A model generated the notes under the pieces. The model saw only the letters and a program-made list of their open reading frames with translations, made no database searches and was not told where the DNA came from. A stretch of DNA of 64,000 bases from Naegleria gruberi (taxonomy: Eukaryota), in the NCBI GenBank assembly GCA_000004985.1, contig GG738845.1. One strand, given 5' to 3'. Below are positions 27,509 through 35,654 of the stretch, piece by piece (position 1 is the first letter of the stretch; each line of letters opens with the position of its first letter). Made by a program: the position numbers and the translations under genes.

Positions 27509-30500
27509 TTATCTTACATCGTAAACGAAACGAACTGCCAATAAGGTTCTTCCCATTGGATCAATAAGTTTACACTTAACTCTTGTCTTTGAGAGGAGGG
27601 AATACACAACATCTCGTTCAGGCAGTGTAATAACGTAACGTTCTTCACGAGGCTCCAACTCTGAAACTTGAGAAACAAATTCAATTCTAGAACCAACAGT
27701 ATCGATCTTTTCGTGGAAAGAACATTGTGAAAGATATTCATTGACATAGAAACGAATTTCCAACTTATACTTCCATCTCTTTCTCAATTTGATAAGAATT
27801 GGATTGGATTTGACTTCAATTGGTTTAACATTCTCTTTTTCTTTTTCTGAGGCATGTCTTGTAACGTAGACATAGGCAGCTTCTAAAACTACACCTGGCT
27901 CCTTATGGTTTACACGAACAACCAAATTATTGTTGTGTGGTTCAATAAATGTTTCATTTGCATTGCTATCTTCAACAAAGTTAATATTAACAACATCATT
28001 ACCACCTGGAGAGAACGAGAAAGTATCAGCAATATTAATTGGAAGTTTCTTTTGAGATTTCTTCATGATTGCATTTGATAATACGTCCATAATTTCAGAT
28101 TTCTTATCAGAATCGTACAAGTAATCATATGAACTTGGAACGTGTAAACAAAAATTATCATCGGCAAAAGGACTCATAGAGGCTCCTTCGATTTCATCCA
28201 AATCAATGATACGTTTAACTTTGAATTCTTGTGGATCGATATTATAAATGTGCTTATCAGTAATAATCATGATACGTTTTTGAGTTTTAAGATTCTTATT
28301 AATCTTTAACACTTCAGAGGCAAACAACACTTGAGTATCACCATTCTTTTGAAGGAGTTGTTGAACTAATTTGTTATAGTGATTTGGAAGATAATCACCC
28401 ATATATTCTCTCATCATTGAGGCCTTTTTTCTTGCCTTTCTACCCTTGTATAAATCTGAACCAATACTTTGTTTGACTTCGCTTACCATATTGTTCTTCT
28501 CTTCTTGTTGATTTTCTTGTTTGTTCTCTTCAACTTCCATATTATTAACACGAATGAGAGCACCTGTACTAGTTGGGAAAATTAGTGTTGATTTAACTGT
28601 CAAATCATCTTGGAAATCAAGAGTTTTAACACCCTTTCCTTTGTGAACAGTATAGACAAGTTTATCGTCAACTTGTAATTCTAGTGACTTGTTTTCCACC
28701 TTCTTTTTGGCATCCATAATGGCCTTGATAATTTCAGTCTTTGAAGAGCTTGAGAAAATGTAATCGTATTCACCTGGAACTTTAAGAATAAAGAAACCAT
28801 CTCTCATAGTACTAACACTAATACCAGCAATCTCCTTGAATGGAATTCTTCTCAACACCTTCAAATCATTATCCAAGTTATAAACAGCTTGATCAGTGAC
28901 TAGTAATTTACGATCTTGAACCAAGTAACGTTTGTTAATCTTTTGAACAAGACCACTGTATAATAATTGAGAATCACCAAATTCCTTCTTGATCTTTTCG
29001 AATTGTTTAGTACTGGCAACGTGTAAATAATCACCCAAGTACCATTTGAGGAGAGAGTCCTTTCTTCTGAGTTTTTGACCTTGATAAATATCTTGAACAA
29101 CATTGGTATCCAAATCATTACTCATAACTTCTTCAACCTTAACTTGAACTTCGGCACCAAAATCAGTTGCAGTAACAACATTACCACGAATAATATCAAC
29201 TTCCTTAAAATCTAATCTTTGTTCGAAACCCTTCTTCATTCTGTGTTTAATTGAATTCTTGACGAAGAATTTCATTTTAGCACGAGTGGCATTTGTGAAA
29301 CTTTCTGATAAGACTTTAAGAATTTCAGTCTTTTTGTTACTTTCAAAGATGTAATCATATTCATCTGGAGTGTGAATTACAAAGAAACCATCTGTATATG
29401 GAGAAACTGTAATGGCCTTCAATCTTCTCATTGGGATTTGTCTGTTGATAATATAACCATTTGGATCGATATTATAGATGGCTCTCTCAGTAATTAACAA
29501 TATTCTTTCCTGTTTCTTATACTTTTTGTTATATTTTGTTACAACACTGGAGAAGTGAACTTCTTGATCACCAAAATCTTCAGTGATCTTCTTCATCAAA
29601 TCAGATTTAGCCAAGTGAATATAGTCACCATAGAATTTCTTGTGGAAGGATGTTTTTCTTCTCAATTTCATGCCATCAAAAACATCATCACTTGGTTTTG
29701 AACTAATCACTAAACCTTCAGTCGTAACTTCAATGGTTGTACCTGACTTGGCATTGTAATTCTTAACATATTTAACAGTCTTTGACATAGCTTTAAGTGG
29801 ATGGAAAACAAATTCTTCACCAATATCAACACGAAGAGTCTTGACACGATGATCATCAGAATTTACAGAAGCCACTGCTTGCTTATTAGAATCATCTGTT
29901 GTTGAATTTTCTCCTGCATTGGATGATGATGGATCCGTATTGTTGGCATTATTGGTTGTATTGTCACTGTTAGGAGTATTGGATGGTGCTCCACTATTAT
30001 TATCCTTATTAATGTGTGAGAAGAATAAATCGTACGAGTCACGAATGGCCTTCATCACTTCATTCTTACTGTCAGCTTCGAGCATAATATCATGGAGTTG
30101 TGGTACAGAAACAATGAAAACTTCATCGTTGAGAGCTGAACATTTCAAACTGTCAATCATCTTGTATTGAACTCTCTTTAAAACTGTGTATGTCTTTGGA
30201 TCAACAAGGTAGATTGCAGAAGGAGAGACAACCAATAATTTTCTCTGTCTTTCGCCTGTTTTGAAATTAATTTGGTTTACAGGTCTTTGGAATAAATTAT
30301 CACATTTTTCACCAAATGTTTTTTCGAGAGCTTTTTGTAAATGTTGTTCTGCCAATACTTTTTGTCTGGCTTTGTACTTTCTAAAGTTTCTTTGAATGAT
30401 GGAGGCCATTTCAATTCTTCTCGATGCCACTTTTTCATCCAATGCAAATAATTGAATTGGAGTTTGGAGGAAAACCTTTGATTTGCCTAGGGAATATTTA

Positions 30501-32807
30501 GATTTTGGAATTTTCATTTCTTGAAGAATTTTCTTTACACCAGCTTTAGGAGTTCCATTCCAACGTGGCCATGTTGAATCTGAACAAAGTTTGTAACGAT
30601 CCAAGAATTTATCAAAGTCCATCTTGAAATAATAACCACTATTTCTAACGTGTACATTTTCAGTGATACCTAAATATTTAACTTGTTCCATGACAACTTC
30701 ATCAATAAATTCATTTGGTTTCTTCTCATGGTTTGGTTTGATACATTTTACAAAGTGATGATGTTTTCCTTTCATTTTACCAACAAATTTGAAAACATCT
30801 TCAGTAAATTGCATTGTTGTGGTTTTTTGCAATTTACCAAATTCAATTTTTTCATCTCTAGGGAAGATTTGTTGCATGAGACCTGATTGTGATTTTCTCA
30901 TAGCAAAAACTAAATCTTCAAACAGTGTATCCTTATTCATTGAAATCCATCCTTCAACGTCATATGTTACTTTACCAGCAAAATGTTTCAAATCAAATAT
31001 TAATCCTGCAAACTTGGATTTTTCATAGCAAGCCCATCCAGTTCCAAAATTAGTATTCAATTTTTGCATGTATCTTTCATCAGTACAATTTGGAAGGAGA
31101 GATTCTTCATCCAACAATTTGTAAATACCAAATGGTTTTCCTTCAATAATTTCAACTGTTTGATCAACATTTTTCAATGGAATTGGATTATATGGAATAC
31201 CCTCTCTTACATATTCATCTTGTTCAGCTTGTAACCATTTTTGCACATGTTGCTGAATCTTTTCATTTACAAAGTTAATGTTCAATTGTTCTAGAGTATT
31301 TTTTTCCTTTGTATGTTTTTCATAAATTTCAAAACCATAAATATCAAGAATGCCTATAGAATATTTTGCATCATCAGGTCTTTTTACAGCTGAATTGATA
31401 CGACGAATGAGCCATGAAAATAATCTTTCATAGATACCCTTTGCAAGTGCATCTCTATTGAATGAAGCCATTGTAGAATTTTGAACTGTTTTTGTTGCTT
31501 CCTTACCAACGTGAATAGTTCTATATAAAAGTGCCTCTCTGAGTGTATCAAATTCAACTTGGAATAAGAAAGCTGCTGTTCTCAATGTATCCTTATTATC
31601 AATTTCTGCTGTGTCTTTACCATTTACATTTAAATCCTTAAACTTGACATTACCCAAGTGTAGAATACCAGCACAAAGTCTGAAAATTTCCATTTGTTCT
31701 AAAACTGAAATACCAGCTTCAGTCATGCTTTGTCTAGTATTCTTAAATTCTAACTTGTCATTCATGCCGTTAATAGTTAAGGAACTAGATGAAGAATTTA
31801 AACCGTTTGCAGTTAAATAATTGAATTTTTTTGCTTCTTCCAATTTCAAATCCTTTTTCATTGATTCATCTGCACCGGCACACATTTGATAGAAAATGTG
31901 GAAATTTCTTTCACCTTTTCTTTGTGACACTACACGTGATTTTTCTAACAGTGATGTTGTAATGTGTGCTCCTTCTAATTGTCCTTTGAAATTGAAGAAT
32001 ATTTCCATATATTTACCAAAACGACTACTATTGTCGTTTCTCAATGTTTTAGCATTACCAAAAGCTTCTAATACTGGATTTGCTTCAATAAGAATACGTT
32101 TAATATTTTCTGTAATTAATCCAGAAATTGAAATGGCACTAATATATTCAAGTAGGATTTTACAACTTTCTGTTTTACCTGCACCACTAGTTGTTGTTAT
32201 TATGTTTGGTCAGAATGATGAATATTCAAAATATGTCCACACACAAATGTTGCAATAATGTGTTATCACAAAATTACTTACCTCTCACCAGAGACCACAA
32301 CAGTTTGTCCCTGACCGGTTTCCTTCATTTGTCTATAGGCATCCTCCGCGAGAGAATATAAGTGAGGACCAATTTCATAGGGTTGTTTGGCGTGATAGAA
32401 ACTTTATAAAGGTTGAATGTGAAAATATTAACAAGTTATACTTACGTCTTGACATGATTCTTATAATTCTTTGTTTTGGAATATGGATTGATAGCAATTA
32501 TTGTTGGACCAAGATAGGTATAAAATTGAGAAACTCCTCCATTGATATCTGGCTGTTTGTTACTATATCTGTTTTTGAGTATTCGTGTGACTGTCTGATC
32601 AGTTGGTTCTTTTATGAGTGATAAATCATCGAGTGTATCCGATTCAAAATTACGTTTATAAAGTTGATATAAAGCAAATTCAGAAGTTTCATTAGTTCCA
32701 TCAACATCGGCTGGGTTTACATTATTCACAACTTCTACCTCAGCCTCCGCTGCTTCTTTTAGTTGGGTTGACGAAGAGTTTGCGTTCACTCCACGAGGAC
32801 TCAACAT
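27509..32807 (-). CDS. Myosin heavy chain, class I-like, with four tandem TH1 tail domains (about 1719 aa). Three exons: 32446..32807, 32282..32401 and 27509..32186.
   Basis: The motor domain has YTYLGPTIIAINPY, GESGAGKTE (split by a 95-nt intron), NDNSSRFGKYMEI and LDIYGFEIYEK. There is one IQ motif (IQRNFRKYKARQK). The tail carries four repeats of the Myosin_TH1 pattern, for example LRRKDSLLKWYLGDYLHVAS...LVQKINKRYLVQDRKLLVTDQAVYNLD...DGFFILKVPGEYDYIF. The introns are GTAAGT...TATAAAG (44 nt) and GTAAGT...CAACTAG (95 nt). Confidence 0.85.
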
Positions 32808-32927: not shown

Positions 32928-35654
32928 TTACATTCTCGTATTAAACCTTTCACTAATTTCAGTCAGGAACTGGTCAATCTTCTTAATGGCTGCAGATGCA
33001 GAAGGATCTTCGATAATGTTAATTTGTCCTTCAGCTCCTTGTGGTATCTTTAACACTTCCTTTTGTCCTCTCACCATTCTCAGCTTTGGATTGATTCTAA
33101 TCAATTCAGCACCAGAATTTTGCTTTAAAACAGTGTCTGACATTGTTCTAAGTTTTTGTTCTGCTCCTATTTCTAAAATACATAATGACCTTCCTTCCTC
33201 CTGGATTGCCTTTTTGATTTTAGTGGTCCAAGTTCTAAATGGGATCATTGATGTTTTTATCCATTGCTCATCAGTAGCGTTCATCTTTGCTCTTGGTCTT
33301 GCAACTCCTCTACAGCTCTCACAGAAAATTCTGTTAATAACTGGTTGTTTCTTTGGATTGTAGAGGTCGATATCCTCTTCAGATTTTACTTTTGAGTTCA
33401 GCAGGTCAGAATACTGCATGGCCTTCTTATTGAATGGATCTTCATAAGGACTCGATGCAAGAGCTGACTTGGGAGTATTAAAAACTGTTGGCGTGGTTAC
33501 TGAAGGAGTGGGATTGGTTGATGAACTAGCAGAAAAGAATGAAGCAGTTTTTCGATCATCCTTAATCTCTGGTTGATGAACAGGTATGGTTGGATTGGCT
33601 GTTGAAAAATCACTGATTGGCATGTCAACAAAAACTGTACCAAGTTTTACACCTTGATCACCTTCTTGGATTGTTCTAAGTTTTAGAGAGTGGACACTAT
33701 CTCTTGTTTTGAGGGAGAAGTCTAACATTCGAACAGAAGCAACCGAAATGTCAGGTAGCTGGCTGTGAGGTCTTCTTAATGATCCCTCTGTTCTTGGTCG
33801 TTGCGCCAAGTTTGACTTCTTGACTGGTGTTCCCAATAAAAACCTCATATTGTATTCTCCTACAAGTTGCCAAGGTTTTTCTTCAACCCTCGTAATCAAT
33901 GTGTTTTTCCGCAGTAATGGTTGAACTACAACACTAACCTTACCTCTAACTGGCATATTTTTCAATACCTTATTTGATAGAGTGTCTTGAGCATTAATGA
34001 TAACCGAGTCAACAAAAATACCATCCTCTTCTCTCTTTCTTCTAATTGTTGGAGAGACTTGACTAGTGAAGGAAATAACGGGAAAAGGCTCATCTATTGT
34101 ATCTTCTAAATTATAAATTTGGACTGATATGATAAATTTTACATTGGTTGAGCCAGCCACCAAAGTAAAATCTTTTGGAATAATTGGAACAGGATTCTTT
34201 CGAAATTCTTGAATATCTCTTTCTGTAACTATATCATCCGAATTATGAATATCTGTGTAGAATTGGTGATAATGAATCATTGGATCAATAATTGTAACCT
34301 CCATGTACCCTTCCTCTGAAGGGTCAATTTCACCATTAACAGCAAATGAATGCAACGTTACATGAACGTCTTCTGAAAACTCTTGGAATCTAGATTCATC
34401 TCCACTCTTGTTCTCTATCAATAATTTAAGGTTATTATTTACATTATGCAAGTGAATTCCATTATTATGTATGTCAGTGTTATATTCTTCATTATTCTCG
34501 TCTTCTGTATTAATTAAATTATATCTCTGTAAAACAGCATCTCTCCTTTCGATTAAGCTCCTGCTATTCAAACCAGATTTAATTCCTTCTGAAGTTTGTT
34601 CTGCTATCTTTCCAATATCTGCCAGTGACCCTAAAACATAATTATTCTTCCCATATAGAGACGATACTCTTCTTGAGGCAGATCCTGGTCTTTGATAATT
34701 TTCTGGATTTTTAAACTTTTCTGGAACATCTTTGTTAGAAAAGAATTGGTAGAATGCTCCTCTTTTTTCCCCTATTTGTGTAGGTATCAACTTGTCTGAG
34801 TTTCCCTTATGGAAAACAGCTCCAGAGATTGGAGTATCCATGTAGAGCTTTTTTTTGAAATAATCTGTTTTTCCAGTAGCAGAATAAAAATTAAAATCTT
34901 CTTCAGATACCGAAGTAAAAAGTGAGTCAGAAAATCCATCTTCTCCTTTCTTTGTATGATGGTGTTTGTCTTGAAATTTTAAAGGTGGAGCTCTTCCACT
35001 TTCCTGGTTGATTTCAAATCTAAAATCTTCCTTAACTCTAAAAAATGATTTACAACAAGGTATTGCACATTGCCAAGTCAATAAATCTCCTCTCGTTTCG
35101 TAATATTCACTTTCCTTAAATCCTTCCTTAACCAATTCTCCATCAATACTAGAAGTGACACAGAAAAATCTGCTTGGCATGTTCATAAATTTCTTCTTGT
35201 CTTCTTGAGGAGGATTTTCATCTTTCTTTTTACTCTTATCTTCGACTTGAAATCTGGGGTCATTTTGAAGAAAAAATACCTCTTTCCAGTGATGGATGGA
35301 TTTAATTGCATTACTTGATGATTGCTTTGAGCGTTGAGATCGGTTTAATGCTTGTCCCCAAAATCCATAAAACAGCTCGTCATCCTTTTTTAATACAACA
35401 GGATCACATAAATCTTCAAGTTTCAAACCAGATTCCGCATACATTTTGGCTCTTTTTTCAAATATTTCCTCTAATATTTTGTTTCCTGATGTTGAGCCTG
35501 ATTCTTCTCCCACAATTACCAGCAAGAAGTATGACAAGAAAATGGACTGTTGAACGATTTAGAAATCAAATGAAAATAAACCTACCTCTGCAGCCCTTTC
35601 AAAAGGATCTGCTTTCTTGTTCCTCTTGAATTTTGCCAATGCTTTGCTTGACAT
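32928..35654 (-). CDS. Sirtuin-fold (Sir2/DHS-like) protein with degenerate catalytic motifs and a roughly 550-aa insertion. Two exons: 35586..35654 and 32928..35546.
   Basis: The N-terminal part aligns with sirtuins. LLVIVGEESGSTSG matches VVLTGAGISTSCG. FLQNDPRFQ matches FFQSDPLPFY. VTSSIDGELVKEG..YYETRGDLLTWQC matches TQNIDTLERQAG..IIEAHGSFAHCHC. The C-terminal part matches too. FCESCRGVARP matches CDVCGELVKP. SLCILEIGAE..GAELIRINPK matches VIVVGTSL...NLE. The catalytic His is Arg, GIPDFR is lost, and NID is SID. Exon 1 (MSSKALAKFKRNKKADPFERAAE) is joined by a 39-nt GTAGGT...AACAG intron. The track start at 35537 is a TTG. Confidence 0.5.

Follow-up and report, generated by a model that had tools for sequence, protein, structure and literature searches.

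In a 64,000-nucleotide stretch of Naegleria gruberi DNA (NCBI GenBank assembly GCA_000004985.1, contig GG738845.1; we refer to the whole stretch as the window), a minus-strand gene at 27509..32807 encodes the class-I myosin XP_002683472.1, in which a motor and a neck with a single IQ motif are followed by four consecutive TH1 (tail homology 1) domains and, at the C-terminus, a predicted RhoGDI-like domain. We hold this account of the gene to be highly probable; the protein, built in this way, would probably be an avid linker between actin and membrane. Canonical short-tailed myosin I proteins such as Myo1b, Myo1c and Dictyostelium MyoIE carry one TH1 domain. The Naegleria protein resembles them in its class-1 lever-base proline, its IQ neck, its predicted PH-like TH1 fold with a K...R signature, and a tail that lacks a coiled coil, SH3 domain or GPA region; it differs from them in having four TH1 domains, a single IQ motif, a constitutive glutamate at the TEDS site, and the RhoGDI-like end domain.

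The core of this finding is already known, since the gene is annotated and the multiplication of TH1 domains is on record. Heterolobosean class-1 myosins with tandem TH1 duplications were catalogued by Kollmar and Muehlhausen (2017; PMC5583752, Additional file 1, Fig. S5); XP_002683472.1 belongs to that set, and N. gruberi is its representative species. The original prediction for this DNA, made from the letters alone, had called the architecture non-canonical, which is true, though the departure had already been recorded for heterolobosean class-1 myosins in that work. In the same survey the C-terminal 128 residues carry no domain assignment, and the RhoGDI-like terminal domain is apparently the single feature without a prior report.

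Gene structure, motor and TH1 tail

All features of the myosin gene lie on the minus strand. Direct reading gives a three-exon gene, with an ATG at 32807 and a stop codon at 27511-27509, in which splicing out two introns yields a 5160-nucleotide frame and a 1719-residue product. Exon 1 (32446..32807) encodes residues 1-120 and two bases of codon 121, and no upstream in-frame start codon was found for it in the list of open reading frames (ORFs). Intron 1 (32402..32445; 44 nucleotides) and intron 2 (32187..32281; 95 nucleotides) both have the form GTAAGT...AG. Exon 2 (32282..32401) encodes residues 121-161 and ends inside the P-loop codons, so that the P-loop GESGAGKT is intact because intron 2 is removed and would otherwise be broken. 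Exon 3 (27509..32186) is one unbroken frame of more than 1500 codons that starts in the P-loop and goes on to encode the remaining motor sequence, the IQ motif, all the TH1 repeats and the end domain; within it the ORF list has a 1511-residue ORF at 27509..32044. The spliced product agrees at every residue with N. gruberi XP_002683472.1 (EFC50728.1; UniProt D2UY43), annotated "myosin". In a comparison with ten orthologues, one of them a transcriptome-derived ORF, both splice junctions are gap-free against N. fowleri, N. lovaniensis, Willaertia magna, the transcriptome ORF and environmental contigs, and the Acrasis kona orthologue, which is N-terminally truncated, covers the second junction only.

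The motor domain (residues 60-734; 30467..32630, a span that takes in both introns) matches Pfam Myosin_head at E = 1.1e-207. Its landmarks include the P-loop at residue 159 (GESGAGKT), switch I at 211 (NDNSSRFGK), switch II at 442 (DIYGFE), a TEDS-site glutamate, E390, located 16 residues before DALAK, and a lever-base proline, P737; on direct reading the ATPase motifs GESGAGKTE, NDNSSRFGKY and LDIYGFE are all present. The neck (30344..30436) contains a single IQ motif, IIQRNFRKYKAR (residues 757-768), likewise found by direct reading, which follows the converter and fits IQxxxRGxxxR with K replacing G; the Pfam IQ match is sub-threshold (15.4 bits; cut-off 20.3), as is a similarly weak match to IQ_SCN5A_C, and the neck holds no second IQ motif. 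The original prediction had placed the gene at these coordinates, with two short introns of 44 and 95 nucleotides, and had described retained ATPase motifs and one IQ motif. Each of these claims holds: the splices rebuild the motifs and align to the orthologues. We note in passing that just after switch II (window ~31336-31356, residues ~450-456) the segment LDIYGFEIYEKHTKEKNTLEQLNINF gives the Naegleria protein a few residues more than some orthologues and canonical myosin I, and that the myosin family of XP_002683472.1 reads LEQLNINF/Y at a site where canonical myosin I reads FEQFCINY.

The tail is fully covered by TH1 domains and the C-terminal domain, and a Pfam scan of the whole protein marks four Myosin_TH1 stretches. 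When tail pieces were scanned one by one with Pfam Myosin_TH1 (PF06017; gathering threshold 31.1 bits), TH1-1 to TH1-4 scored 44.7, 121.1, 117.4 and 147.3 bits, so that all four exceed the threshold, as the prediction of four tandem TH1 domains had it. TH1-2 (residues 991-1188; 29105..29698; E = 5.8e-35), TH1-3 (residues 1189-1384; 28517..29104; E = 7.7e-34) and TH1-4 (residues 1401-1591; 27896..28468; E = 5.4e-43, profile positions 1-185) are full length and share 35-37% identity with one another (E = 1e-36 to 1e-45). TH1-4 additionally matches the Myo1c tail (PDB 4r8g) by sequence at E = 1.6e-6, and its predicted model, with two helices, seven strands, a further helix and extra strands, has 4r8g as its top Foldseek match (E = 6.3e-9). 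Of the four repeats it is TH1-4 that was compared with the Myo1c tail in fold, and the model predicts for it a PH-like TH1 fold like that of Myo1c.

TH1-1 (residues 776-990; 29699..30343; E = 1.6e-11, profile positions 24-136) is divergent, with 25-35% identity to the other three over ~100 residues (E = 1e-11 to 1e-13). It starts at about profile position 28, immediately after the IQ region, and is without the N-terminal basic/GDY segment. A local TH1 hidden Markov model (HMM) matches the N. gruberi repeat at positions 31-134 and 137-185, and in insert-free orthologues the same repeat is a contiguous TH1 covering profile positions 28-190 (E = 1e-25 to 1e-33). The insert itself is a low-complexity stretch rich in Asn, Ser and Thr (window 29834-30013, residues ~886-945) that separates the PH-like core from the C-terminal beta extension; Naegleria and Willaertia have it, Acrasis and the remaining orthologues do not. 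Measured across the tail, the repeats are ~195-215 residues long and their period is ~198-212 residues rather than the ~150 first proposed, and the motif set originally listed for every repeat (RRK-S, GDY, KINK, DGFF..EYDY) describes TH1-2, TH1-3 and TH1-4 but not TH1-1, which has no basic/GDY head.

In Myo1c, residues K892 and R903, in the beta1-beta2 region of the PH-like core, are reportedly required for phosphoinositide binding (Hokanson and colleagues, 2006). Alignment to 4r8g places the two at K1455 and R1465 of TH1-4, and the equivalent columns are occupied by lysine in 10/10 and arginine in 10/10 orthologues in each of TH1-2 (K1045/R1055), TH1-3 (K1243/R1253) and TH1-4, a level of conservation similar to that of canonical reference sequences, which keep them in 9 or 10 of 10. 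The same three repeats have the basic start seen in canonical TH1 domains: KLRRKTS in TH1-2, KLRRKDS in TH1-3 and KARKKAS in TH1-4. In TH1-1, the signature lysine is found in none of the ten orthologues (the N. gruberi residue is Q799), and the arginine in only six. The tail thus has three, not four, predicted canonical phosphoinositide sites. Multivalent membrane binding by the tail of XP_002683472.1 can reasonably be inferred from these residues, and the original suggestion of multivalent lipid binding is therefore plausible for TH1-2, TH1-3 and TH1-4, and slightly overstated in that it also counted TH1-1.

The C-terminal domain

The original prediction had the tail end in an extension of ~170 residues. 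What follows TH1-4 is instead a stretch of 128 residues (1592-1719; 27512..27895), predicted to be a folded beta-sandwich domain, and it is the best-conserved part of the tail, with ~80% of positions matching N. gruberi across 11 species. An AlphaFold2 model built with nine orthologues is all-beta and confident (predicted local distance difference test 85.5; predicted template modelling score, pTM, 0.78). Searched with Foldseek against the PDB, this model has RhoGDI1 or RhoGDI2 as every one of its top 31 matches (E ~1e-8, template modelling score ~0.7, 17-19% identity), and the next group consists of the lipid-binding proteins UNC119, PDE6-delta (PDE6D) and NPC2 at E ~1e-5. The C-terminal 128 residues are accordingly predicted to adopt the immunoglobulin-like sandwich fold of RhoGDI's prenyl-binding domain. 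More speculatively, the domain is a candidate binder of prenyl groups or lipid anchors. The hydrophobic pocket that in RhoGDI accepts a geranylgeranyl or farnesyl group would be putative here; at the positions aligned to the RhoGDI pocket residues L77, W192 and W194, the myosin domain has V, V and F.

A comparison by hhalign with human RhoGDI1 (the sequence used was checked against 1cc0_E) aligns the whole domain at E = 0.0029, pairing YKLEIRFYVNE with YRIKISFRVNRE and EPREERYVITLP with GPRAEEYEFLTP. The match spans RhoGDI residues 65-193 only, and the sequence directly upstream of it in the myosin is TH1-4. In RhoGDI, the N-terminal arm touches the switch regions of the GTPase and blocks GDP release. 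The myosin domain is missing this regulatory arm and is similar to the prenyl-binding half alone, which makes GDI an unsuitable name for it; true GDI activity is not expected of a domain without the helix-loop-helix arm of RhoGDI1/2. It differs from RhoGDI1/2, PDE6-delta and UNC119 also in its setting, as the end of a motor protein and not a free cytosolic chaperone.

Several results, the missing arm among them, weigh against a RhoGDI kinship. The likeness is one of predicted structure, and its support in sequence is weak: Pfam Rho_GDI (PF02115) gives no match in the domain at E up to 1, and the hhalign alignment has a probability of only 11%. A model of TH1-4 together with the C-terminal domain has the Myo1c tail as its top Foldseek match, followed by RhoGDI; its pTM is 0.48, and it therefore provides no reliable packing or orientation between the two domains. 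Among the possible relatives outside myosins discussed below, some are detected marginally or by eye. Profile searches of the PDB with the orthologue alignment and with a widened alignment of the domain likewise returned no match at E up to 10. Searches of protein databases found only short fragments of myosins of the same family and no named or stand-alone relatives; these searches missed the full-length orthologues too, and are thus a weak guide to distribution.

These results leave room for a different account of the domain, which we regard as possible and short of probable: it could be a generic immunoglobulin-like sandwich that makes a protein contact or caps TH1-4, with neither a lipid pocket nor any connection to Rho. 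The silence of Pfam and PDB sequence searches on Rho_GDI, the low hhalign probability and the absent arm all fit such an account. It is harder to square with the whole-domain coverage of the hhalign alignment and its paired segments, with the lipid-binding identity of the next Foldseek group, and with the occurrence of the module in fusion with RhoGEF domains.

The evidence for this last point comes from a search of 1.84 billion representative proteins with a TH1-repeat profile, with Pfam checks on the matches. Four-TH1 myosins were limited to the orthologue family of XP_002683472.1 and its N. gruberi paralogue. TH1 domains also occur in other settings: two each in the SH3-RhoGEF proteins P0152, P0154 and P0162, two each in a calponin-homology protein (P0155) and a PX-domain protein (P0158), and one each in the kinase-like proteins P0192, which has Pfam kinase matches, and P0174, which is similar and has none. 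A local HMM built from the end domain finds it at the C-terminus of a Willaertia protein (P0145; E = 2e-14) and of the RhoGEF P0152 (E = 1e-6 in a 290-sequence set), and at ~1e-4 in the kinase-like P0192 and the related fragment P0176, with P0174 marginal. The RhoGEF P0162 is also marginal (E = 0.14), and P0154 goes undetected and was aligned by eye only, so that by sequence the homology of RhoGEF C-termini to the myosin end domain is firm only for P0152.

With TH1 followed by a RhoGDI-like end in several proteins, the unit looks like a reusable module, and its fusion to RhoGEF gives circumstantial support for a link to Rho-family GTPases. It is possible, though on balance we doubt it, that the end domain is a true relative of RhoGDI and that TH1 plus this domain constitutes an undescribed membrane-plus-lipid-anchor unit shared by the myosin, RhoGEFs and kinase-like proteins of heteroloboseans and at least one other eukaryote. 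When the TH1 domains of the RhoGEF, kinase-like, calponin-homology and PX proteins are added to the TH1 tree described below, almost no deep support is obtained, and an origin of the non-myosin TH1 domains from myosin TH1-4 is not decidable from the tree.

Three further observations concern individual relatives. Two loci of JGI sample 3300062347 (L001 2576-5398 and L003 3001-6411) encode SH3-RhoGEF proteins in which a coiled coil is followed by two TH1 domains and a related C-terminal domain; the L001 gene model looks split, and an ORF just upstream encodes SH3 and the N-terminal half of RhoGEF. Three JGI myosin orthologues whose origin was looked up stem from other samples. In Willaertia magna, KAL9653901.1 (P0145; JBEGDK010000047.1, L002 8001-10736) is a 911-residue protein with three TH1 domains and the RhoGDI-like domain; it is encoded by a stand-alone gene without a motor and in this differs from XP_002683472.1, resembling a "tail-only" relative. 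The N. gruberi paralogue XP_002682373.1 (P0141; 1826 residues) has the motor, four TH1 domains and RhoGDI-like end domain, and is distinguished from XP_002683472.1 by large inserts in its motor, which break its Pfam head match into three pieces.

As for earlier descriptions, the term RhoGDI is absent from the myosin surveys PMC3942036, PMC5583752 (text and text-form supplements), PMC2375034 and PMC5778035. The literature searched contains no link between a RhoGDI-like domain and a myosin tail and no mention of the accessions, and Velle and Fritz-Laylin (2020) do not discuss the gene for XP_002683472.1; automatic structure-based annotation may already flag the domain.

Conservation of the array and placement of the motor

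All eight of the orthologues and paralogues scanned with Pfam (from Willaertia, Acrasis, the transcriptome ORF, several environmental sequences and the N. gruberi paralogue) contain four TH1 stretches. In a neighbour-joining tree of the repeats of ten species together with TH1 domains of canonical myosin I, each repeat position forms one clade, with bootstrap values of 99, 100, 94 and 89. The four-fold array must therefore predate the divergence of these heteroloboseans, its copies having been kept separately since; such separate conservation, in a tail encoded by one exon, indicates an ancient array under selection rather than one duplicated recently or produced by misassembly.

What has been conserved could in principle be a length rather than a set of binding sites. 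The four TH1 domains might serve mainly as a rod or spacer that extends the reach or lever of the motor, with TH1-4 and the end domain alone attaching to membrane or cargo. The lost lysine of TH1-1 is in keeping with this, as is net charge, which is about zero in TH1-1 and TH1-4 (-1 and 0, respectively) versus +7 in each of TH1-2 and TH1-3; moreover, the end-domain unit occurs in other proteins with one or two TH1 domains, suggesting that a single adjacent TH1 may suffice. A rod does not readily explain why TH1-2 and TH1-3 keep the K/R pair in 10/10 species along with their KLRRK start, nor why each repeat position is conserved separately, and we judge this account unlikely. The reading of the tail as a multivalent membrane binder, which we prefer, has two points to its disadvantage: lipid binding by the repeats is something we infer from two conserved residues and homology, and the literature searched holds no experimental or expression data on the gene.

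We assign the motor of XP_002683472.1 to class I from sequence markers, score ranking and the literature. The closest non-orthologous proteins among 5.8 billion searched are all myosin I, at 35-42% identity across the motor, and the PDB ranking runs from Myo1b (533 bits) through Dictyostelium MyoIE (514) and Myo1c (483) to myosin II (445) and myosin V (415). A one-residue insertion at the lever-base proline is a class-1 marker (PMC5583752). In a manual alignment, the lever base KVFLQTPIQLFALDE has the length and proline position of class-I references (K[IV]F[IL]+xPxxLFxLEE) and is one residue longer than that of Dictyostelium myosin II, KIFFRAGQLARIEE, which was verified against PDB 1jwy; the proline is kept in 11/11 family members. 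With myosin I proteins as closest matches and the class-1 proline in place, the class-I-like motor of the original prediction is upheld. That the motor might be a separate, lineage-specific class that gained TH1 domains independently could be argued from its modest identity to canonical myosin I motors and from the basal branching of most heterolobosean class-1 myosins relative to amorphean ones (PMC5583752). Class-I structures lead all other classes by 40-90 bits, however, and specialist classification puts the heterolobosean multi-TH1 myosins in class 1; we reject a separate class as very improbable.

Finally, that the long tail is a prediction or assembly artefact in which a myosin I was fused to neighbouring TH1 genes has a single point in its favour, the need for two predicted introns, and we dismiss it as having practically no chance of being correct, given that the exon 3 frame of more than 1500 codons encodes the tail in full along with the larger part of the motor and that the architecture recurs in N. 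fowleri, N. lovaniensis, Willaertia, Acrasis, the transcriptome ORF and metagenome contigs, including two 5-kb environmental contigs that encode the whole protein as a single ORF and thus speak against a fusion.

Genomic surroundings and proposed role

The myosin gene is closely flanked on both sides. Convergent with it is a gene for a GNT-I family glycosyltransferase (window 25970-27471, plus strand), in which an ORF at 26506-27471 (+) covers positions 123-426 of the Pfam GNT-I profile (E = 6e-106); the missing N-terminal part is probably encoded by an ORF at 25970-26482, just upstream. The stop codons of the two genes are 37 nucleotides apart, and their 3' ends must therefore be very short or overlapping. 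Upstream of the myosin gene, an 869-residue ORF on the minus strand (window 32928-35537), for which a Pfam search found no match at E 0.001, ends 120 nucleotides before the myosin ATG, and the myosin promoter and 5' untranslated region must therefore fit within 120 nucleotides.

We propose the following picture of how the protein may work. Its tail leaves no room for a coiled coil, and XP_002683472.1 would therefore probably work with a single head, linking actin to membrane. Because TH1-2, TH1-3 and TH1-4 keep both the K/R pair and the basic start, the tail should grip acidic membranes, and up to three phosphoinositide-type sites bound together could make binding highly avid and the dwell time long. 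TH1-1, having lost the signature lysine, is more likely to be a spacer after the neck. For the end domain, the most likely function would be to bind a lipid anchor, for example the prenyl tail of a Rho/Rac-type GTPase, without inhibiting nucleotide release, and through such binding the motor would be linked, at the cortex, with Rho-family signalling; as this proposal starts from a predicted structure, we offer it tentatively, as a conjecture that may well prove wrong.

Naegleria is a fast-crawling amoeba in which membrane-cortex coupling is actively studied. The myosin described here would offer a clean natural case of membrane avidity raised by multiplying a weak lipid-binding domain. Should the end domain be a lipid-anchor binder as conjectured, the myosin could capture prenylated Rho/Rac or be recruited by it and would carry its own GDI-like solubilising domain alongside the motor, and binding of prenylated GTPases would constitute a direct physical link from myosin I to Rho signalling. 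In that event TH1 and the GDI-like domain would also stand out as a module reused in RhoGEFs and kinase-like proteins.

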